A program made the position numbers and the translations under genes. This document shows, one piece after another, positions 22,203 to 54,501 of a stretch of DNA of 64,000 nt. Source of the stretch: Lachnospiraceae bacterium (GTDB taxonomy: Bacteria > Bacillota > Clostridia > Lachnospirales > Lachnospiraceae); NCBI GenBank assembly GCA_021205305.1, contig JAJPXU010000011.1, forward strand, positions 10,553 through 74,552, in the 5' to 3' direction. Each line of letters starts with the position of its first letter. The first letter of the stretch is position 1. The notes beneath the pieces are model-generated. The model was not told the origin of the DNA and did no database searches. It saw nothing but the letters and a program-made list of their open reading frames with translations.

Positions 22203-23765
22203 TCAATCCTCCAGTGACCGGAAATCGACATACCCCGTTGCCAGATCATCCGCGTAAATCAGATAGCTTCCGCCCTCCATGTTCAGATAGAGATACGGCA
22301 TCTCATCCACACGAACAATCCAGGCGACTGTAACCGTGACGGTCTCTCCTGCCAAAAGGTCGGTAATGTAATTGCTTCCGTTTGTTTCCTCTCCGCCGGC
22401 GGTATAATAGTCCATCGCATAGCCGCGGGGTATTGTCGCGTAATCCCAGTCACCCTCCTCAAGCGTGCTTCGGTCATAAATGGCTATCATGCCGTCCTCA
22501 TCCTCTGTCAGAGTGATCAGGTCTGCGTTATACAGAACATTGTGCAAGTCGGCCTCTCCGTTATTGGTATATTCAATGGTCGCGCAGATCAGCTTCTGTT
22601 CCGCTTCCTCCGTCTTTACCACGGTATTCAGAGAATTGACGCCGTCGCCTGCTTTCACGTAATCAATCTGCATCGGCAGCAGATTGCCGTCTTCGTCTGA
22701 ATACGTCTGCAGGTCATTGGTATAGATCCCGGAATCCAGTATGCTCTGCCAGTCGTCGCCCAAGGCGCTCATATTGTCTGACACCCAGACCCCGCTGACC
22801 CGGACACTGACCGTATGGAAAGACTCCTCATCTGCTTCACTATCCGAATAGGCAGATATCTCAAAGGAATCCCCGATCTGGTGTAGGTTTTCCTCCACAG
22901 CTGATGCTTCCACCGCCGTACAGGCGCCATCCTCCTCCGGATCATCGTCTATCTCTGGCAAATCATCTTCCTCGGGCAAGGCGTCCGCAAGGAGCGTTGT
23001 TTCTTCACTGCCGGTCACAATGAGTCCTTCCGCGACCGCAAGCAGCTCGTCCTTTGTCACTTTACCGCTCATTGAATAAATCCTGAGAATGCGCCAGACC
23101 TCCGGGTACAGGATATACAGCATCTGCGTCGTATTTTCAGAACCGTCATCCAGATACTCTTTTTCCAGCCAGACAGCGTAGTGACCGTTCAGCTCCAGTT
23201 CCTCGCTGTCCACCACATTGGTTTCCGAAATCTGCATTTCCGCGGGATTCTCACCCATGATCTCCTCTGCGATGCTGAAGCTTCCGCCCCAGAGATCGTC
23301 CTCGTAATCAATCTTCCAGCCGTCGTCGTACTGCACCATCCCCTCCGGGAGATAGGACGCTTCCACCGTCACACTTGCCGGAATCTCCTCCGGTACTTCC
23401 AGTTCGGCAAGCATCGCAGCCATCGAGCCTTCGGAGTCTGTCTCCGTCTCAGCTGAGCCGATGGTAATGTTTATTCCATAGTCTCCTTCTGTCTCTGTAA
23501 AAAACCGCGCTCGGATGGCAGTACCAGCCGCCACGGTCGTACACATGATGGCGGCAGCGGCGGCAACCAACAGAAACGTTTTTCCGGCCTTTTTCCGCCC
23601 TGTGCTTCTGCTTCGATTCTTTTGCGGATGCTCTGCCTTAGCATCGTCCAAATGCGCAGCGGAATGCGTTTCCACACTTATCTGCGATGCCACTTCACGC
23701 TCTATCATCGTTCGCATACTTTCCGGCATTTCCGGAAATTCTTCTCTCATATTTTCTAAGTTCAT
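22203..23765 (-). CDS. Membrane-anchored anti-sigma factor candidate with acidic extracellular region (DUF4367-like segment)
   Basis: Directly after the ECF sigma; short cytoplasmic N-terminus, one TM (FLLVAAAAAIMCTTVAAG), SYLPEGM motif. Confidence 0.65.
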   Translation of the reverse strand: MNLENMREEFPEMPESMRTMIEREVASQISVETHSAAHLDDAKAEHPQKNRSRSTGRKKAGKTFLLVAAAAAIMCTTVAAGTAIRARFFTETEGDYGINITIGSAETETDSEGSMAAMLAELEVPEEIPASVTVEASYLPEGMVQYDDGWKIDYEDDLWGGSFSIAEEIMGENPAEMQISETNVVDSEELELNGHYAVWLEKEYLDDGSENTTQMLYILYPEVWRILRIYSMSGKVTKDELLAVAEGLIVTGSEETTLLADALPEEDDLPEIDDDPEEDGACTAVEASAVEENLHQIGDSFEISAYSDSEADEESFHTVSVRVSGVWVSDNMSALGDDWQSILDSGIYTNDLQTYSDEDGNLLPMQIDYVKAGDGVNSLNTVVKTEEAEQKLICATIEYTNNGEADLHNVLYNADLITLTEDEDGMIAIYDRSTLEEGDWDYATIPRGYAMDYYTAGGEETNGSNYITDLLAGETVTVTVAWIVRVDEMPYLYLNMEGGSYLIYADDLATGYVDFRSLED

Positions 23766-23886
23766 AGATTACCTCTCAGTCTGTTTCTCTTTTTCACATG
23801 ATTTCCCTTGCTTCTAATCGCCAATTGCCCCTTCCCTGGCGTCCAATTCCTGTGATTCTATTTTACAGGCTGCGCTTTCAACCGTT

Positions 23887-26212: not shown

Positions 26213-28233
26213 ATTCCTGCAAGCAGATCTTCCATCTGGCGGCTTTTTTTCGTGAGTTTCCAAATAAGCACTGCAATCAGAAGCAGAAAAAACAGAATCA
26301 TGATTACTATCGTCACTGCCCACCACTGGTTTGAAGTACTCTCTTCCTCTGCTTCAATGGAAAGTTCCACCACCTGCGGTGCTGCGATTGTTGTGGTAAA
26401 TTCCCGCGTATCGGTGTAAACTGTCCCGTAAGCATCCTCCCAGGTAAGAGTAAGCGTCCCTGTTGTGGAACCATATGCAGTCTCAGCATTAACATCATTG
26501 GCAGTGTCGGAGGCTTCTGTTCCCTGCGACGATTCATCTTTATCGTTTAAATTACTGACATAAATCTTAATCGTCCCATCGTTGGAAGTCCCTGCTTCCA
26601 TGTTTCCGGCATAAACCGTGTTCGTTGCGATCAGTCCGTCCGCTTCCAAAGATACCTGTACATTGTAAACCGGTCCGCGCCCGGTATTGCGAACCTCCAG
26701 TGTCGCCGTTACTGTCTCCAACGAATACACAGAATCGGACAGGTTAAAATTTTCGATGGAAACCTGCGTTTCCTGGCTGATGTCAAAAAACAGTTCTTCC
26801 GAATCGCTTAAGGACGTTCCGTCCGAAGTTTCATACACGAAAGAATAGTTTAAAGCAGCAATTTTTTGTGTCGCTGCGGCTGAAGCGGCAATCGTGTTTT
26901 CCAGCGTGATCACTTCCTGCGGGGCAATCTGATCATAATAGTAAGAGGTGGATGAAAGCGCAACATTCTCATCTGCTGTATTTACCGTGATTTTCAGACT
27001 ATACACGGTCTGGTCATCGCTCGTATTCTGGAAGCTTGTGATAAAATCCATCTGCTCCCCTGCCGGAAGCAAAGCTCCGCTAAGTGAGCATTCTTTCAGC
27101 AAAATATGCGGCTGGTGCTTCACCGCACTGCTGCTTGCACTGCCACTGTAACTGCTCCCGGAAGAATAATACGTCGTTACAGCTTCCATTTCTGTTTCAG
27201 ATTCTGTCTCCGTTTCGGATTCTGTCTCCGTTTCGGGTTCCGATTCTGACCCGGATTCTGTCTGAAACTCCGGCTCTGGTTCCGTAACAATCAGCGCGTC
27301 CGTCTCTGATTCTGGTTCCCAATTCGTTTCGCTCTCTGTCTGTTGCCGGGAATCGGATTCCAGGGTCACTGTCATCCGGCAGGTCATCTCAGATTTCACA
27401 CCGGAAGCAGAATAAGCGACCGCTTTCACTGTAACCGGATACTGCCCTGACTGGTAATCATCCGCAAGTGTAAATTCAGCTTGAAAGAGGTATGCGTCCA
27501 CGCTTTCCAAAGTACCGTCCAGATGCGAAGCATTTTCCTCAATGGATGGCACCTGATAAGTCAGTAAAAACACTTCCTCCTCATACTCCGCCTTTTCAAA
27601 AGGGGAATCCAGAGCAGATTCCACCGTTACCGTCAGCTTATTCTCCAATACCGGAGCATCTGCCACAAATGGAATTACAAGAGAAACCGTATTTTCTTTT
27701 ATCGATGGAACATATCCCTCTATATAAGATAATTCCATTCCTTCATACACATGATATACATCAATAGAAAGAGAAATCTGTGAAAATTCTGCCCCTGCAT
27801 CCGAATTTCCAGTGTCTGCATTTCCCATATCGTCAGCTACAGAAGCAATCGTGCCTGTTTCGTTATTATACATCGTGTTTTCCTGATTGGTTATCGATTC
27901 CAAAGCAGAATCCGGAATAGCGGAGGACGGCACCTCTTCCATGCTGTCGATTTGGAGAGCCTCGCCATTCTGAATCGAGCTCTGCTCGATGGCGAGGCCT
28001 TCGTCCTCGATTCTCTGCGAGAATCGGGACATGTTTTGGAGAGCCTCGCCATTCTGAATCGAGCTTTGCTCGATGGCGAGGCTCTCTGTTTCCTGCCCTT
28101 CCAGCACAACCGCTTCCTCAGCCAGTGCAATCCAGCGGAAAGATACTACGGCCGAAGCAAAAACAAGGACAGCCAAAAAAGCTGCAAGTATCCTGTATCG
28201 TATGGCATTCTTCTCGCTGCTCATATACCGCAT
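26194..28233 (-). CDS. COG1361-like surface protein (signal/TM, Ig-like domains, C-terminal TM)
   Basis: N-terminal hydrophobic leader, QPHILLK...NTG..PVYNVQV..GNMEAG motifs, C-terminal WWAVTIVIMILFFLLLIAVLIWK. Confidence 0.7.
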   Translation of the reverse strand: MRYMSSEKNAIRYRILAAFLAVLVFASAVVSFRWIALAEEAVVLEGQETESLAIEQSSIQNGEALQNMSRFSQRIEDEGLAIEQSSIQNGEALQIDSMEEVPSSAIPDSALESITNQENTMYNNETGTIASVADDMGNADTGNSDAGAEFSQISLSIDVYHVYEGMELSYIEGYVPSIKENTVSLVIPFVADAPVLENKLTVTVESALDSPFEKAEYEEEVFLLTYQVPSIEENASHLDGTLESVDAYLFQAEFTLADDYQSGQYPVTVKAVAYSASGVKSEMTCRMTVTLESDSRQQTESETNWEPESETDALIVTEPEPEFQTESGSESEPETETESETETESETEMEAVTTYYSSGSSYSGSASSSAVKHQPHILLKECSLSGALLPAGEQMDFITSFQNTSDDQTVYSLKITVNTADENVALSSTSYYYDQIAPQEVITLENTIAASAAATQKIAALNYSFVYETSDGTSLSDSEELFFDISQETQVSIENFNLSDSVYSLETVTATLEVRNTGRGPVYNVQVSLEADGLIATNTVYAGNMEAGTSNDGTIKIYVSNLNDKDESSQGTEASDTANDVNAETAYGSTTGTLTLTWEDAYGTVYTDTREFTTTIAAPQVVELSIEAEEESTSNQWWAVTIVIMILFFLLLIAVLIWKLTKKSRQMEDLLAGMENLAD
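27952..28082 (-). repeat. In-frame A-B-A palindromic repeat mosaic inside the coding sequence
   Basis: Two 47-nt copies (27952-27998, 28036-28082; one mismatch, 84-nt offset) encode LAIEQSSIQNGEALQ twice around a CGATTCTC-GCA-GAGAATCG hairpin. Confidence 0.9.
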
Positions 28234-43092: not shown

Positions 43093-44322
43093 TCATACAA
43101 GATCCGTCTTATCGTAGCCAAAATTTTTAATCATATAATCACTGTCGCGCCAGTCCTTCTTTACCTTCACCCAGAGCTGCAGATTGACCGGTTCTTCCAG
43201 CATCTGCTCAATTTCATAGCGCGCCTGTGAGCCGATTTTGCGCAGCATCGCGCCCTGCTTGCCGATCACCATGCCTTTGTGAGACTCTTTTTCGCAGATA
43301 ATCGTCGCCTCAATATCCATGATCCAGTCTGAAGTCTCACGCACATCCACTTCCGCCTGTTCACGGCGGCTGAGCGTATCATCCACATTCGTCCGGGTTT
43401 CCGTCAGCGTCCTTCCATTCTTTTTACCCTGGAAGTCCTTCCTCTCCTCATTCGGCAGCAAGCCAGGCTGCCCATTCTGCTCCACTTCTCGTGAGACAGT
43501 CTTTTTCGCATGTTCATGGCGGTGTTTCTTCCGCACGGCCTCGGCCCGTTTCTCCCTGTGCTTCTGGCTGCCCGCAGGCCGCTCCTTCATCACTTCGATT
43601 GAAACCGCGATCCCATGTGGAATCTCCTCCTCCATGCAGCGCAGCGTCTTCTCCCGGATCAGCTCCGCCACAATCTGTTTCTGCGGCTGGTCGGTCACGG
43701 TATCATCGTCGTAATATTTCGGTCCGTATGGCAGACAGCGGAATATTGCGCTGATCACCTCGTCCATATGCAGACCCCGCAGTGCGCAGACCGGTATCAC
43801 AGCATCAAAATCCAAAAGCTCCCGGTAGACATCCAGATAACGCGGAATCTCACTTTTCGCCACGGTATCCATTTTATTCAGAATCAGGATCACCGGAATC
43901 TTCGTGGAGCGGTATTGCCCCCTCCCTTCGGTCGGCGGCAGGTCGGGCTGCCCATTCCAATGCGCTGTGCGCGGGGCAGCCGCTCGGAGCATCTGCGCAA
44001 TATGCTGATCCCCTCCGCCAACCGAATCCGTCGGCTCAACCAGCCATAATACCACATCCACTTCCCGCAGCGTGGACTCCGCTGCCGTCACCATATATTC
44101 GCCCAGCTTATTTTTGGCCTTATGGATACCGGGCGTGTCCAGAAAAATAATCTGCCCCTGTTCGGAGGTATAAACCGTCTGAATCCTGTTTCGCGTCGTC
44201 TGCGGTTTGTTCGACGTAATCGCGATTTTCTGGCCGATCAAGTGATTCATCAATGTCGACTTTCCAACGTTCGGCCGCCCGATCAGAGTCACAAAACCGG
44301 ATTTAAAATTTGCGTTTTCCAT
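43093..44322 (-). CDS. era: GTPase Era with two unusual insertions
   Basis: GRPNVGKST, PQTTRN, DTPG, NKMD, KH-domain VIGKQGAMLRKIG; 409 aa. Confidence 0.97.
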   Translation of the reverse strand: MENANFKSGFVTLIGRPNVGKSTLMNHLIGQKIAITSNKPQTTRNRIQTVYTSEQGQIIFLDTPGIHKAKNKLGEYMVTAAESTLREVDVVLWLVEPTDSVGGGDQHIAQMLRAAAPRTAHWNGQPDLPPTEGRGQYRSTKIPVILILNKMDTVAKSEIPRYLDVYRELLDFDAVIPVCALRGLHMDEVISAIFRCLPYGPKYYDDDTVTDQPQKQIVAELIREKTLRCMEEEIPHGIAVSIEVMKERPAGSQKHREKRAEAVRKKHRHEHAKKTVSREVEQNGQPGLLPNEERKDFQGKKNGRTLTETRTNVDDTLSRREQAEVDVRETSDWIMDIEATIICEKESHKGMVIGKQGAMLRKIGSQARYEIEQMLEEPVNLQLWVKVKKDWRDSDYMIKNFGYDKTDLV

Positions 44323-44344
44323 GATCGTTCCTCTACCTGTTTCC

Positions 44345-47300
44345 TTACGCAATATCTGTCCCGGCAAGCGGCCGGATAGAGCCAAAGAGCTCTGCCGCTC
44401 CCTTTATCTTCTCTTCGTTTCCGACCACGCAGATCGCCTCCGCGTCGAGAACGCTCTGCACCAACGGCGCAAGCGCGCGAATCTGCTCTGGAGTCGCAGA
44501 GAGAACCTCATCCCGCTCCCGCTGTACATCCGCTTCCGTAATCTGTGAAAAATACGCATTCAGAGAACGAGAACCCTTCATCGCCGGTGTCAGCGGCGTA
44601 TCCAGATCACTGATCGCCCCAATCACGTATTTTGTCATCTCACGCTCGTCCGCGTCAAAGTCGCGCAGATAAGCCGGAACAGCCTCAAAAATTTCATTTG
44701 TTCCGCCCAGATGCGGATCCCGGTACGAGACAAAATATGCGTCGCCTCTTCGGGAGAAGGAGCACATACATCCATACGCGCCGCCTTTTACGCGGATATT
44801 TACCCAGAGATATTCATAGCTCATCAGCACCTTCAGAATATGAAGAGCGCCTGTGTACGTGAATCCCGCGTCTTTAAAGTTCCCCACACGGGCCACATAC
44901 TGTACCTGACCTGGTGTAGTAAATCCCTCGTTCTTCTTTTCCAGATGAAATTTCCTGCAGGAGGAAGCGCCATTCTTTAAACGGGCAGTCTCTGCTTTCC
45001 CTTCACACACACTGCTCTTATCTTCTGCCCCAGTGGAGATTACAGGTAAGCTCCGTGCAAATGCAAGCAACGGATTCTGCAGCAATTTCAGCCCCTCCTG
45101 GTCGGATGTCACGCTGACGAACAGATTGTCTCTCGTAAACAACAGGTCACAGAGTGTGCGAAGCTTTTCTTTCAGTGCTTCTTTTTTCTCCTCAAAATGC
45201 TTCTCCAGATCCGCAACCAGATCATAGTAAGCAATCCCGGTCACGGCGTCATTAAACGCGCTGAACTCTGACAGATAGGAAAGTGCCCGTCCGACCGCGG
45301 CCTGATGGCCTGCGGAAGCCAGCTGCATGGAAAGACGCGATTCCAGCTTCGCAATGATCTCATAAAGCCGCTTATCATCGTCAAACCTCGAAGTAAGAAT
45401 TTCCTTCGACATTTCCAGCGCATATGGCAGTTTCTCGTAGAGTACCCTTGACCGAATCCCCATATAGGCTTTGACCGTTGTATTCCTCTTTCCAGCCATA
45501 ATCTCTGACTGACTGGCAAAAGCCCCCTCCTCCGGAACGGCAGTCGGAACAGGAAATACACTGATTCCCACAGAAATGCCGCCGGTATTCATATTGATAT
45601 CATTATTCAGGTCACTGTATGTGAAATGCTCTGTGTCAACCATACCGAGCACCGCTTTGAGTATACCCAGATAGCCCAGATCATCCGTGGAAACCGCATC
45701 CGCGTCAAAAAGCAGATCCAGGTAGGAAATTCCATTTGTAAACACATCGTGGTGCAGAACCTTCAACCCGTCCCAGTCAAGCTCCGTATTTTCAAAAGGC
45801 GCAGCCTTTTTCCCAATATCCGCACGGGTCAGCATCGGCAGCTTCTTCAATTCCTCTGGTGTGGACGGAGTCTCCTGGAACTCGCGCAGCCGACCGGTCG
45901 CTGCGATCATCTCTTCCAGCTGTGCCTCACTCAAGGTTGCTTTGTATGTCTGCAATTTCTCACGCAGGGCAGCATCGGTCTTCGCCGTCAGGCCGCGCTC
46001 CGGGGCAAGCGTTACCAGAGAAGCATGCGTATTATCCAACAAATACTTCTGAATCAGATCCTCAAAATAAGAAGTTTCCACGCGCTCACGCAAATCGGCA
46101 TACACATCCAGCTGCTTCAGATAAGAAAATGCCGCGTCATCGTCATACAGCCAGCTGTCAAAGGTATCCAGCCCATAAATCAGACCTTTCGGCGCGGAGC
46201 CATAATCCGCCTCGCGGAATTTAAATTCCATTGAATTGATGCCCGCATACAGCGCCTTTTTATCGATGCCTTCTTTTACAATTTCCTCAAGTGTCTCACG
46301 AATAACCGTAAGAAAGCGCTCCGCATCCGCTTCGTTCGCGTTTTTGGCAATAATTCCCATATAAGGCTGATAAAGTCCGCTCTCATAATCGCCCATGATG
46401 TCATTGCCAATCCCGGCATCCAGCAGAGCCTGCTTTAACTTCGCGCCCGGCGCGGATAAAAGGGCATATTCCAACACCGCAAACGCATTAGAAAGCTCCA
46501 CCTCCGGTCCTGTCCCAATGACGGCATTCCAGGAAAGATACGTATTGTTTTCCAGTTCGTCATCCTCCGAAATCGGGTAACTCCGACGCACACGGCGCAG
46601 CTCCCCAAACGGCTTCTGAAGCGCAATCGTCGGTACTTCACCTTCCGCACCAGACGGCAGATCAAACGCGCTCAGATATTCCCGATCCAGCCAGAGCAAC
46701 CGCTCCTCAATATCCATGTTCCCATAAAAATAGATATAACTGTTCGACGGATGATAATACTTTTTATGAAAAGCCAGATAGTCCTCATACGTCAGTTCCG
46801 GGATATTCTGCGGATTTCCGCCCGAATCCACACCATACACGGTATCCGGAAACAGGCTGTTCATAATCTCTCGCTCCAGCACATCCTCCGGAGAAGAATA
46901 CGCGCCCTTCATTTCATTGTAAACAACGCCGTTAATCTCAATCTCGTCCGCTGCGTCCTCCAGCTGATAGCTCCAACCCTCCTGGTGGAAAATCTGCTCA
47001 TTCTGATAAATGTTCGGGTAAAATACCGCGTCCAGATAGACATCCATCAGGTTACAAAAATCCTTATCATTGCAGCTTGCAATCGGATAAACGGTCTTAT
47101 CCGGATAAGTCATCGCGTTCAAAAAGGTATTCAGGGAACCCTTCACCAACTCCACAAACGGATCCTTCATCGGGAATTTCCGGCTGCCGCAAAGCACACT
47201 GTGCTCCATAATGTGCGGCACACCCGTGCTGTTCGTCGGCAATGTCTTAAACGCAATGTCAAACACCTTATTCTCGTCATCGTTCTGGAGCACCAGAATG

Positions 47301-51307: not shown

Positions 51308-51435
51308 AGTATACCCCTACCTTTCGTCTCATTTCATGCAAATTGGTCTCGCATTTGAGATACTGCGATTATAGCATAGCATCAGGGAAAACAAATGATG
51401 GTTTTTCTGTGATTTTCTTAAGAAATGGTTAAAAT

Positions 51436-51815
51436 GTAAGCGGGACGATAAGCCGGGTTCTGTCGTGGGTGATCATCTATCCAGGCCTGTCGTTGCCGAC
51501 AGGCTCGAGCGACCTACCTGAGGCTGACGGGCCGTCTGCTTCCTGCCCCGGTCTGGCCGGGGCAGGGGGTTCGCCTCGATGCGGTCTTGCTTCGGATGGG
51601 GTTTACATATGCCGTCTCTGTTGCCAGAAACACGGTAGTCTCTTACACTGCCCTTCCACCCTTACCGACTCGAAAGTCGGCGGTTCATTTCTGTTGCACT
51701 ATCCCTGGAGTCGCCTCCGCCGGACGTTATCCGGCATCCCTGCCCTGTGAAGCCCGGACTTTCCTCGTCTGGCGTCTTTCGACTTCTGCCAGCCGCGATC
51801 ACCTGTCCCACTTAC
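51436..51815 (-). ncRNA. rnpB: RNase P RNA (type A)
   Basis: Minus strand has GAGGAAAGTCCGGGC, AGTGCAACAGAAA, AAACCCC..CCGAAGCAAG and ACAGAACCCGGCTTA conserved regions with paired ends. Confidence 0.97.
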
Positions 51816-51869: not shown

Positions 51870-53606
51870 TTATTTCTCGAAGCACCCACCTCCGATAAAT
51901 TCACGAATCAGAGAATGATTCGGAATCGCGTCGCTCGGAATCGGCAGGAAATAATCCAGAAATTTCAGCAGACGTTTGGCTTCCTCGTACTCCGGCTCAT
52001 CCGGCCGAATCGAAAAAAGAAGTGGTTCCGCATACTGTTTTAACACAGCAAGTTCGTATATCAGCGTCGAATTAAAAATATAATCCGCGGATTCCTGGAA
52101 TGGGAAAATATAATTGGATTCGCCCCGGCGCACGGACGGCCACATGGCAATCGTCCCCCGTGCATCTGTGCCGCGCATACGGGCATCCCGCACCATCCGG
52201 CGAAGAAGGCGGCCATCCGTCGTAGGGATTCGATTGTGTTCATCAATGTTCAGCTGTGTGAGGGCACTGATATAAATCTTTACCTTATGGTCCGCATCCA
52301 GGCGCCAGGTCAGCTGGTCGTTCAGGCAGTGGATACCCTCTATAATCAGGATATCCTGTTCTCCCAGCTTTGTCTTATTCCCTTTGTACTCACGCCTGCC
52401 GGTCTTGAAATTAAACGTCGGAAGTTCCACACACGCTCCCTGAAGAAGCGCGAGCATATCTTCATTCAGTTTTTCCACATCGATTGCTTCCAGACATTCA
52501 TAGTCCGGTTTTCCATCTGCATCAATGGGGGTACGCTCCCGGTCTACAAAATAATTATCTGCCTCGATCGGATGCGGCTTCAGGCCGTGTACAGAAAGCT
52601 GCGTAGAAAGCCGGTGGGAAAAAGTCGTTTTCCCGGAAGAAGACGGCCCCGCAATCAGAATCACCCGCTTTTCTGGCGACGCTGCGATTTGTGCTGCCAT
52701 TTCGGCAATCTTCTTTTCGTGATATGCTTCCTGAATCATAATCAGGTCTTTCACACGATGGTTTACAATATATGTATTCAGTGCGCCGACCGTCGGAATG
52801 CCCAGACGCTCGCCCCATTCCATCGAGTCTTTCTGCGTCTTCCAGATCTTATGATGTGGGATATGAACGGCCTGTGCTTTCTTTTGAGCGCCTGTATCAG
52901 GCGGTTCTGTCGGCGGCAGGTTCTTTGAAAGCTTGCCCGGCTCCATCTGCGACGGGAAACACAAAAGGAAGCCATCTTCGAACAGGCGAAGGTCAAAGCA
53001 GGTCAGATAAGAGGCATCCGGAAGCATATATCCGTAATAATAATCCTCGAAATTCTCAAGATTGTAAATATTTACCTTCGAAGAGCGACGGTAGCGGAAC
53101 AATTCTTCCTTATCATACATCCGGTATTCATGAAATCTTTCACACGCCTCCCAGGTCTCAATGGTTTCCTTGCGGATGGGAGCCGCTTTGCGTACCAGCG
53201 TTTCCATATACTGCCTGACTTCATTTAAAAATGTTTCCGTCAGCGCGACACGCCCCTGCATCGTGCAGTAATAGCTGTCTCCCACTGAAAAGTGAACACT
53301 GACGCAATCAAGATTCCGGTTATCCCCGACTACGTAATACATACTTTTTAACATCAAAAGTACCAGAGAACGCCGATAGGTCTCACAGCCAGCCTTATCC
53401 TGCAGCGTCACAAAGCGCACCTGTGCGCCGTCCCCTGGGGTTTTTACGAGTTCACGCAGTCTCCCGTTTTCGTTTACCAGCACAATCGGGTACGGAAAAT
53501 TCTTCTGATGTGCGGCCGCAATCTCCCGAAATGTCACATCTGCCGGATAGCTTTCCGGTATTCCTTCTATATATACTGTGATTGATTTTTCTTTGTTCTC
53601 ATCCAT
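51870..53606 (-). CDS. Nucleoside/uridine kinase-family protein with ThrRS-like N-terminal domains
   Basis: C-terminal IAGPSSSGKTTFS, IEGIH, DGRLLRRMVRD; N-terminal TGS/editing-like region. Confidence 0.85.
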   Translation of the reverse strand: MDENKEKSITVYIEGIPESYPADVTFREIAAAHQKNFPYPIVLVNENGRLRELVKTPGDGAQVRFVTLQDKAGCETYRRSLVLLMLKSMYYVVGDNRNLDCVSVHFSVGDSYYCTMQGRVALTETFLNEVRQYMETLVRKAAPIRKETIETWEACERFHEYRMYDKEELFRYRRSSKVNIYNLENFEDYYYGYMLPDASYLTCFDLRLFEDGFLLCFPSQMEPGKLSKNLPPTEPPDTGAQKKAQAVHIPHHKIWKTQKDSMEWGERLGIPTVGALNTYIVNHRVKDLIMIQEAYHEKKIAEMAAQIAASPEKRVILIAGPSSSGKTTFSHRLSTQLSVHGLKPHPIEADNYFVDRERTPIDADGKPDYECLEAIDVEKLNEDMLALLQGACVELPTFNFKTGRREYKGNKTKLGEQDILIIEGIHCLNDQLTWRLDADHKVKIYISALTQLNIDEHNRIPTTDGRLLRRMVRDARMRGTDARGTIAMWPSVRRGESNYIFPFQESADYIFNSTLIYELAVLKQYAEPLLFSIRPDEPEYEEAKRLLKFLDYFLPIPSDAIPNHSLIREFIGGGCFEK

Positions 53607-54501
53607 CTGTCATACCCCCGTTCTCTCCATATAACCGCAGTGCCTCATCCATCTGCCTGATGCAGCGCTGTACCTCCAGCTCCCGCATCCTGGCTGTTTC
53701 GCTTTTCCCCTGCTTCAGAGATTTCAAAACGTTCTCCTGCGTCGCACGTTCATGCAGCATAAACTGACGCAAAACAGGATGGCGCATTTCCAGCAGCCTG
53801 GGGCCAAAAAGCAGCTCTGTCTCACGCATCGCTGAACCCAAAGGGTACCATTTCGCTTTCATCATTGGATAATACTTTCCGTCCTCGAAAATCATATCCT
53901 CCCGCACGATTTTCCATCCGTTTTGCTCTAACCAGGAACGCACCAGCGAAATTTCCGACTGAGGCTGCAAAATCAGCTCTGTAGTGCTTGCCAAACACGC
54001 AGTGCTTGCCAAACGCGCAGCGTTTCTTAAATTGCAAGCGCGATCTGCCCTCGCCGGGTGGCATCCTCGCCCTTCGGGCGGGATATCCGCCGAAGCGCAG
54101 CGAGGGGGCGTTTCCAAAGCATTTCCTAAATCGCCGACGCGATGCTCCCCTGTCTGAATTACACCGTCCTTCCTCCCGTTCTCCAGAATTCGAATCGTCA
54201 GTGCGCCGCCCATCCCGGCAATCACTATACTCTGTGCCTCATTCGGCGCAAATGCCTTCAGGCCATCGGAAAGCCTGGTCTCGATTTTTTTTTCCAGAGC
54301 GTGTTCCCGGATGTGCGCGTCAGCACGCGCAAGCGGACCGCGGTTGATATCCGCCGCGATTGCGCGCGGGATAATCTGCTGTTCCATCAGATAAATCGGT
54401 ATGTATGCATGGTCCGTCCCGATGTCCGCAAGGACAAGCCCGGGCGTCACCATGTCTGCGACTGCCGCCAGTCGTTTTGATAACTGCATAAAATCCTCCA
54501 T
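53599..54501 (-). CDS. trmK: tRNA (adenine22-N1)-methyltransferase with a large insertion
   Basis: DIGTDHAYIP, RLSDGL, IAGMGG, ILQPQS; follows rpoD. Confidence 0.93.
   Translation of the reverse strand: MEDFMQLSKRLAAVADMVTPGLVLADIGTDHAYIPIYLMEQQIIPRAIAADINRGPLARADAHIREHALEKKIETRLSDGLKAFAPNEAQSIVIAGMGGALTIRILENGRKDGVIQTGEHRVGDLGNALETPPRCASADIPPEGRGCHPARADRACNLRNAARLASTACLASTTELILQPQSEISLVRSWLEQNGWKIVREDMIFEDGKYYPMMKAKWYPLGSAMRETELLFGPRLLEMRHPVLRQFMLHERATQENVLKSLKQGKSETARMRELEVQRCIRQMDEALRLYGENGGMTDG

Follow-up and report, generated by a model that had tools for sequence, protein, structure and literature searches.

The gene trmK of a Lachnospiraceae bacterium (assembly GCA_021205305.1), encoding tRNA (adenine22-N1)-methyltransferase, carries 65 residues between the motifs ILENG and ELILQPQS, where about 8 are usual. 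With a probability of roughly 85%, this extra segment consists for the most part of a single copy of a small, non-autonomous hairpin repeat, composed of the core of the Rfam family GA-cis (RF02987) and an additional hairpin, module B. The gene lies in a stretch of 64,000 nucleotides (contig JAJPXU010000011.1, positions 10,553 to 74,552 of the forward strand), referred to here as the window; positions without a contig label refer to it. The source genome (G000) is a 3.1-Mb metagenome-assembled genome (MAG) of 173 contigs and 91% completeness. A first-pass annotation of the window had proposed that hairpin repeat DNA, normally non-coding, is read in frame within TrmK, and this proposal is supported by the comparisons described below.

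The extra loop of TrmK

The open reading frame (ORF) of trmK encodes 300 amino acids; in the database, the gene is called from codon 5 onwards, which yields a protein of 296 amino acids. A Pfam scan of the protein yields PF04816 (165.7 bits, E 1.3e-48) and PF12847, matched in two separate stretches. ILENG occupies residues 105-109 and ELILQPQ starts at residue 175, leaving the 65 residues in between. The same loop consists of 8 residues in most TrmK orthologues (19 genomes of the genus). When TrmK is aligned with the solved structure 3gnl_A, the match ends at query residue 110 and restarts at residue 167, in both cases at residue 112 of the chain, which identifies the TrmK segment as a pure insertion. 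The excess length noted in the first-pass annotation is therefore real, as judged by the ORF, the orthologues of the genus and the structural alignment.

Comparison with the closest relatives divides the loop into an older and a younger part. Residues 110-128, together with T174, combine the usual loop of about 8 residues with some 12 further residues from an older expansion specific to the lineage. Different, unrelated low-complexity expansions occupy the same loop in the most similar TrmK proteins of the database (70-76% identical) and in those of 16 other genomes of the clade, and the spacing from AGMGG to LILQPQ varies from 21 to 76 residues among them. By this comparison the loop is a permissive hot spot, its length being already variable across the clade. 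The younger part, residues 129-173, accounts for 45 of the approximately 57 extra residues and derives from one element insertion plus an 18-nt duplication. The element itself is 117 nt long (54001-54117) and encodes residues 129-167; the two members of the 18-nt tandem pair (53983-54000 and 54001-54018) are identical at 17 of 18 positions, and the duplication is absent from every other aligned element copy in the genome. A 26-nt direct repeat links the two parts (54019-54044 and 54118-54143, 77% identity). Positions 54118-54143 may thus be a degenerate partial C module (see below), but 77% over 26 nt is too weak to be relied upon.

The peptide encoded by the element copy contains three cysteines and one histidine, and Pro, Gly, Arg and Ala abound in the peptide of the insert (ETPPRCASADIPPEGRGCHPAR...), which is predicted to be unstructured. 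In the AlphaFold model of TrmK (mean predicted local distance difference test (pLDDT) score of 88, predicted template modelling (pTM) score of 0.82), the core exceeds a pLDDT of 95, while the insert reaches 52-70 and forms a low-confidence excursion that joins a helix to the next strand of the Rossmann fold. A Foldseek search with this model returned the TrmK structures 3gnl, 3kr9, 6q56 and 7o4o as best matches, with target-normalised TM scores of 0.86-0.94. In the model, the insertion site seems to fit the fold of TrmK, the one host considered in this respect, as an excursion at the surface, at a distance from the conserved motifs. TrmK retains all 39 columns that are invariant in 75 homologues. 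Its N-terminal domain is 91% identical in the nearest sampled relative, G200, and the ratio of non-synonymous to synonymous substitutions (dN/dS) between the two is 0.07 at a dS of 0.62. From the sequence and the model, the gene looks functional, with purifying selection and an intact core fold. The insert is presumably translated and would be neutral for TrmK activity.

A modular hairpin element

Alignment of the long copies resolves a modular element, A-B-C, of 117 nt, the A-C core of which measures 78 nt. In gene orientation the modules read TGGAAACGCCCCCTCGCTGCGCTTCGGCGG (A), ATATCCCGCCCGAAGGGCGAGGATGCCACCCGGCGAGGG (B, 39 nt) and CAGATCGCGCCTGCAATATAAGAAACGCTGCGCGTTTGGCAGGCGCT (C); the corresponding segments of trmK are given in Table 1. 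Module B consists of the hairpin ATCCCGCCC-GAA-GGGCG(A)GGAT and, after it, the conserved GCCACCCGGCGAGGG; other elements have between 0 and 4 copies of this module. Module C is a nested hairpin with an outer 9-bp stem (GCGCTTGC/GCAAGCAC) and an inner 6-bp stem (AAACGC-TGC-GCGTTT). The element architectures found in the genome are AC, ABC, ABB, BB, BBB and BBBB, in addition to single modules. Tandem B arrays occur at C136:30-187, C41:63-98, C54:55998-56111 and C25:2824-2930, with a period of mostly 39 nt (40 nt in C136); several of the B-module arrays are located at contig ends, and such repeats probably break the assembly.

The consensus of the element is free of stop codons in four of the six frames. 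In the main sense frame, used by about two thirds of those in-ORF copies that are in sense orientation, it encodes (M/V)ETPPRCASA-[DIPPEGRGCHPAR]n-(A/D)ERAAHGENAARLAGA, and the peptides have a length of 26 residues for AC (8 checked hosts) and of 39 residues for ABC (4 hosts).

These modules also account for most of what the first-pass annotation had read from the DNA. The outer stem, in which CCCTCGC (54048-54054) pairs at 7 of 7 positions with GCGAGGG (54100-54106), the CGCCC-GAA-GGGCG hairpin on the minus strand (54068-54080) and the 18-nt duplication are all present where they had been described. Two stems of the nested structure had thus been listed correctly, but the third nested hairpin, module C, was missed, and the 3' arm of hairpin C can now be named as the source of the duplication. 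The attribution of all 57 or so extra residues to nested hairpins holds for the 45 that stem from the element and the duplication; the rest belongs to the older loop expansion. A suggested resemblance of the outer stem to a repeat 'family A' was mistaken, as the family is GA-cis with an extra hairpin, and only a GGCGAGG-type motif is held in common.

Table 1. Positions in the window of trmK, its insert and related features
Feature	Position	Strand	Remarks
trmK, tRNA (adenine22-N1)-methyltransferase	53599..54501	minus	300-aa ORF (ORF list)
TrmK insert, residues 110-174 (65 residues)	53980..54174	minus	gap from ILENG to ELILQPQS
Older loop part, residues 110-128 (RKDGVIQTGEHRVGDLGNA)	54118..54174	minus	comparison with closest TrmK relatives
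Module A (TTGGAAACGCCCCCTCGCTGCGCTTCGGCGG)	54087..54117	minus	codes LETPPRCASA; GA-cis second hairpin; copy alignment, nhmmer, Rfam
Module B (DIPPEGRGCHPAR)	54048..54086	minus	39 nt = 13 codons; 60 nhmmer matches in genome
Module C, nested hairpin	54001..54047	minus	codes DRACNLRNAARLAST; GA-cis first hairpin
18-nt tandem duplicate of hairpin C 3' arm	53983..54000	minus	6 codons, ACLAST, residues 168-173
RF02987 (GA-cis RNA) match to trmK insert	53997..54119	plus, antisense to trmK	sub-threshold, model 1-88 of 88
A-C element inside era (43093..44385, minus)	43907-43987	minus	in frame, just before NKMD motif; peptide AAPRTAHWNGQPDLPPTEGRGQY
Predicted peptides covering insert junctions of TrmK			CASADIPPEGR; LASTACLASTTELILQPQSEISLVR

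The GA-cis core

The trmK copy matches RF02987 with 24.7 bits (E 0.01) and thus remains under the gathering score of 34.7, because the 39-nt hairpin B sits in the tip of the second stem. Sibling A-C copies score 47-63 bits overall, for example 47.2 bits for an intergenic copy on contig C98 and 49.4 bits for the copy in era. In the Rfam alignments, module C corresponds to the first GA-cis hairpin and module A to the second, the tip of which accommodates module B as an insertion. By these alignments the trmK copy is apparently a derived GA-cis member, comprising the core and a B insertion. In era, the Rfam strand is the coding strand, opposite to the situation in trmK.

A search of G000 with RF02987 gave at least 49 matches (E<=0.001), a lower bound with 57 of 256 candidates scored, and all matches listed are above threshold. 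The number of matches per genome is 8-52 in the 18 element-bearing genomes and 0-8 in the other 45, and 14 control genomes searched with RF02987 gave none. Rfam classes GA-cis as a small RNA (sRNA) gene; the trmK copy lies instead inside a coding sequence. The motif reportedly originates from the work of Weinberg et al. in 2017. In the literature, GA-cis was met only as a table entry of the Rfam 15 paper; it goes unmentioned in the main text of Weinberg 2017, and no description was found of GA-cis as a high-copy repeat that enters ORFs.

Copies in the source genome

When compared with its own genome, the insert DNA gives 41 matches in unrelated places, the best of which is 93% identical over 116 nt (in the gene for AlaX), with further top matches at 85-95% in unrelated genes. 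Iterated nhmmer searches of the genome detected 19 A, 60 B and 43 C modules, which merge into 91 elements; 48 of these lie within long open frames. A profile of the A-C core found 77 copies, 51 of them inside long ORFs. These assignments use a proxy in which a copy counts as inside a gene if the ORF has at least 150 amino acids, with at least 30 on either side of the element, and gene calls do not enter into it. The family comprises approximately 80-90 copies in the genome, and by this ORF-length proxy half to two thirds of them are in frame inside genes. The 51 in-ORF core copies show a modest orientation bias, with 31 oriented as in trmK and 20 in the opposite direction. The anchor-to-anchor length modulo 3 shows no difference between copies inside and outside ORFs, in a model that stops short of the true 3' end; the statement that the elements are codon multiples is therefore derived from the filled and empty sites described below and from the peptide lengths.

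Six hosts were verified by Pfam, namely a DapL-like aminotransferase, AlaX, agmatine deiminase, LarB, PheT and [FeFe] hydrogenase. Further host genes encode cellobiose phosphorylase, SbcC, AddB, two ABC exporters, LacZ and Era. A LacZ-like GH2 gene (C125:40842-43560, a frame of 1207 amino acids) contains three to four in-frame copies, i.e. two AC, one ABC and a possible degenerate fourth. Within the window, a C-module fragment (VPSIEENASHLDGT) is found in frame at 27513-27551 (minus) within a putative surface protein of 684 amino acids.

Filled and empty sites in related genomes

Comparison with other genomes shows the element at some orthologous sites and its absence from others. Three orthologous genes of G000 and other genomes differ by exactly 39 residues between the filled and the empty site, and the inserted DNA at these sites (NTGGAAACGCC...GGCGGCGCT) comprises 117 nt placed between intact codons. 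None of the three filled/empty pairs shows a target-site duplication, and the element flanks yield no convincing consensus for a target motif. In the genes for hydrogenase and LacZ, G000 has AC and a relative has ABC at the same site, an exact difference of 13 codons (39 nt).

Two other genes of the window illustrate the same variability. The gene at 22212-23810 (minus; C35:32764-34362) contains a 12-residue remnant, VET..HSAAHLDDA, of the full 39 residues present in the orthologue of another species (L069), and this remnant looks like the outcome of a 27-codon in-frame internal deletion during decay. The gene adjoining trmK (51870-53606, minus) is empty here, and its orthologue in isolate AH.1_3 (L084) contains an in-frame element (..STDILPEGRGCHPARADCARDLRNAACLA..). 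None of the 38 other genomes examined from the genus has the element in trmK, among them 16 element-bearing members of the clade including G200. The element hence appears to have entered trmK in the source lineage only. The protein database holds no same-species trmK allele without the insert, and the source TrmK forms a singleton cluster.

In a DNA search, 18 of 63 species from the genus contained the element, as did 1 of 150 further genera belonging to the family; a plasmid search gave no match to the insert. With the element peptide as query, 47 loci were retrieved from other genomes, 46 from MAGs of uncultured Lachnospiraceae or Clostridiales and one from an Opitutaceae MAG; 24 of the 47 are within long ORFs. 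The Opitutaceae locus (L103, CAYSBR010000010.1, uncultured) is a single weak peptide match to module B (DIPPDGRGCHPARA) outside the Firmicutes, which could be due to chance, contamination or transfer. The window also encodes a bacterial RNase P RNA of class A at 51433-51814 (minus, 293 bits).

Hairpin covariation and nucleotide-level constraint

The folding energy of the whole insert is no better than that of dinucleotide shuffles (z = -0.64), and the case for structure is therefore based on the comparison between copies. Hairpin C comprises 15 pairs, with 89% of cells paired and compensatory changes in 10 pairs; its 49 double-sided changes compare with 14.3 +/- 3.1 in shuffled alignments (0 of 500 shuffles), and slid controls are paired at 26-46%. 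In the 9-bp stem of hairpin B, 95% of cells are paired and 26 double-sided changes are seen, versus 10 +/- 2.2 in shuffled data. The second GA-cis hairpin, module A, aligns to the Rfam model, and the covariation counts given here are those of hairpins C and B. When G-T pairs are compared with A-C mismatches (wobble test), hairpin B shows a strand preference opposite to that of hairpin C.

Four insertions are shared between species, and in these the third-position identity is 0.85, 0.81, 1.00 and 0.97 within the element, versus 0.53, 0.56, 0.87 and 0.87 in the flanking codons. For the two deeper pairs, the amino-acid identity of the element (0.69 and 0.65) is below that of the flanks (0.85 and 0.72), and the shared copies show no clustering of substitutions at third codon positions. 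The copy in the AlaX gene (G000 C14:9721-9837) is identical to that of G200 (L059) at 117 of 117 positions, with 30 differences over 621 flanking nt. Third-position conservation that is not accompanied by higher amino-acid identity indicates constraint at the nucleotide level, and it is in all likelihood as nucleic acid, and not as protein, that the element is constrained or homogenised.

Origin, mobility and alternative explanations

The most probable history of the TrmK segment begins with the insertion of one copy after the source species had split from its nearest sampled relative. The copy would have landed in the loop that leads from the helix after the AGMGG motif to the LILQPQ strand of the Rossmann domain. 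A later 18-nt slippage event would then have copied the 3' arm of the last hairpin, as expected for replication slippage at hairpin C. The gene would have survived because both lengths (117 and 18 nt) are multiples of three, the frame is free of stop codons, the peptide is unstructured and the site is at the surface. For the family as a whole, spread would proceed by precise insertion without target-site duplication, driven by a trans-acting machinery other than a genome-encoded transposase of the Y1 or REP-associated tyrosine transposase (RAYT) type. The copies inside ORFs would be survivors that kept the frame, avoided stop codons and hit tolerant loops, and the hairpins would be maintained by constraint on the nucleotide sequence and not on the protein. 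The element would count as mobile in the strict sense.

Two established routes of mobilisation were considered and rejected. A dependence on RAYT enzymes, as known for repetitive extragenic palindromic (REP) sequences, is not supported by a PF01797 search of 63 genomes, which showed no association with the element. A transposable element of the miniature inverted-repeat type (MITE) derived from an insertion sequence is at odds with the lack of terminal inverted repeats and of target-site duplications. The best end-to-end inverted match within the element covers 14 nt at 79% (54003-54016 with 54108-54121), and it uses the inner-hairpin arm of C and is not terminal.

Several observations weigh against an origin of the segment from a mobile repeat. 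No enzyme that would mobilise the element was found: PF01797 is missing in G000 and in 8 of the 18 element-bearing genomes, the PF01797-free set consisting of G000 (91% complete), G018 (100% complete) and six other element-bearing genomes. In the low-copy genomes, no transposase is located beside the copies, and the neighbours are ordinary genes. Some of the ORFs counted by the proxy, such as the repeat arrays on contigs C75 and C23, may not be real genes. Finally, the element exceeds neighbouring synonymous sites in conservation, unlike purely neutral junk, which leaves room for a function or for ongoing homogenisation between copies. On the other hand, the objections anticipated in the first-pass annotation were not borne out: the genome contains dozens of DNA sequences related to the insert, its absence from trmK in the 38 other genomes speaks against conservation at the protein level across genera, and the invariant residues, the predicted TrmK fold and the low dN/dS point away from an inactive gene.

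An unlikely alternative is that the element is a functional structured RNA or cis-acting signal and that the trmK copy is kept for a role at the RNA level, be it as an antisense sRNA, in mRNA stability or in translation pausing. The covariation does back a two-hairpin structure, sibling copies exceed the Rfam gathering threshold, and the conservation above flanking synonymous sites would suit such a role. However, some 50-90 copies per genome are spread in both orientations and several frames over unrelated genes and intergenic DNA, the Rfam strand is antisense in trmK and coding in era, and the occupancy of sites differs between sister species. Such placements are hard to reconcile with a single common regulatory role, and the opposite strand preferences of hairpins B and C in the wobble test also argue against it. 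A selected protein module that confers a new property on its hosts, e.g. a metal-binding Cys/His loop or an interaction loop, is highly improbable. It could explain why one frame (ETPPRCASA...) is used by about two thirds of the in-ORF sense copies, and the trmK copy does offer three cysteines and one histidine, but these residues are not conserved, as RCASA, RFARR, RGSSA and HERSA occupy the same position in different copies. Other frames and the opposite strand are likewise read through, substitutions do not concentrate at third codon positions, the insert is modelled at low confidence, and the same proteins lack the segment in sister species. It is scarcely credible that repeat copies were merely misjoined during assembly of the MAG. 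Its 173 contigs and the B arrays at contig ends (C136:30-187, C41:63-98) do indicate that the repeats may break the assembly; yet the flanks are the two halves of one trmK, in frame, within a contig of 82 kb, restoration of the frame is not expected of a chimera, and comparable exact in-frame insertions are found in independently assembled genomes.

With the insertion of a hairpin repeat as the preferred explanation, a wider reading of the family can be offered, although only tentatively. GA-cis may be a previously unrecognised mobile hairpin element that is RAYT-independent, produces no target-site duplication, consists of frame-neutral units of 78 or 117 nt with whole-codon modules, colonises ORFs of free-living gut Lachnospiraceae at least as often as the palindromic elements colonise those of Rickettsia, and is held by selection at the nucleotide level. 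If this holds true, what Rfam lists as an orphan 'RNA motif' would in fact be selfish DNA, and either a sequence-specific machinery for mobilisation or homogenisation is yet to be discovered, or the hairpins have a cellular function.

Comparison with known systems

Classical MITEs possess terminal inverted repeats and target-site duplications, neither of which is present here. The QMITEs of Coxiella burnetii (PMC5896051), like other MITEs derived from insertion sequences that occasionally insert in frame, are small non-autonomous repeats that sometimes add residues to annotated proteins, but the QMITEs are found mostly at gene ends or in hypothetical ORFs. REP sequences, bacterial interspersed mosaic elements (BIMEs) and REP doublets forming hairpins (REPINs) resemble the element as GC-rich, high-copy hairpins that form mosaics and tandem arrays and lack a target-site duplication. 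The element differs from REP and REPIN sequences in that PF01797 is missing from G000, no GTAG/CGTC tag is visible by the stems, and the copies are not restricted to extragenic DNA.

In architecture, the element is similar to the BOX elements of S. pneumoniae (boxA-boxB(n)-boxC; PMC10969869), which also combine end modules with a middle module in variable number; the AC and ABC forms at one orthologous site exemplify this variation. Both occur in Firmicutes, form hairpins and have no known transposase. This likeness is one of architecture, and BOX is essentially intergenic, whereas at least half of the copies of the present element are read through in frame. The likeness to GA-cis (RF02987) is one of sequence and structure, as the A-C core aligns end to end with the 88-position model and contains the same two hairpins.

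In behaviour, the closest counterparts are the Rickettsia palindromic elements (RPEs). RPE-1 to RPE-10 are palindromic repeats inserted in frame in Rickettsia genes (Ogata et al. 2000 Science 290:347, as summarised in PMC10969869). Both families are short palindromic repeats located in frame in many unrelated functional genes, and each contributes a peptide characteristic of the family, mostly read in one preferred frame. In either case ORFs contain about half of the copies, the insertion sites are compatible with the fold, and no transposase is known. The two differ in their hosts, which are free-living gut Lachnospiraceae with genomes of 3-5 Mb for the element described here and reduced, obligate intracellular Alphaproteobacteria for the RPEs. 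The units also differ in length (78 or 117 nt versus about 150 nt in RPEs), and only the Lachnospiraceae element has the explicit modular structure A-B(n)-C with a 39-nt module in variable number. Homology to RPEs is unlikely, given that the element is restricted to one Lachnospiraceae clade; the likeness is one of behaviour.

For 25 years, 'selfish DNA' lying in frame within housekeeping genes has been treated as a peculiarity of Rickettsia. The clade in which it is now seen consists of uncultured gut Lachnospiraceae whose genomes are of normal size, and TrmK is one well-resolved case of a phenomenon found throughout that clade. A 2024 review of MITEs only speculated on the occurrence of in-frame elements beyond Rickettsia (PMC10969869), and the searchable literature yielded no description of RPE-like elements in Firmicutes. 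The exact units of 39 and 13 codons and the clean filled and empty sites in sister species make both the insertion mechanism and the tolerance of loops testable. The hosts TrmK, Era, PheT and [FeFe] hydrogenase provide a natural catalogue of insertion-permissive sites, and annotators are cautioned that, in this clade, the long 'disordered loops' of conserved enzymes derive from repeats. It also allows the orphan Rfam family GA-cis to be read anew. The phenomenon described here is thus RPE-like behaviour, so far associated with Rickettsia, in a new phylum, displayed by an element with a BOX-like architecture and a GA-cis core.

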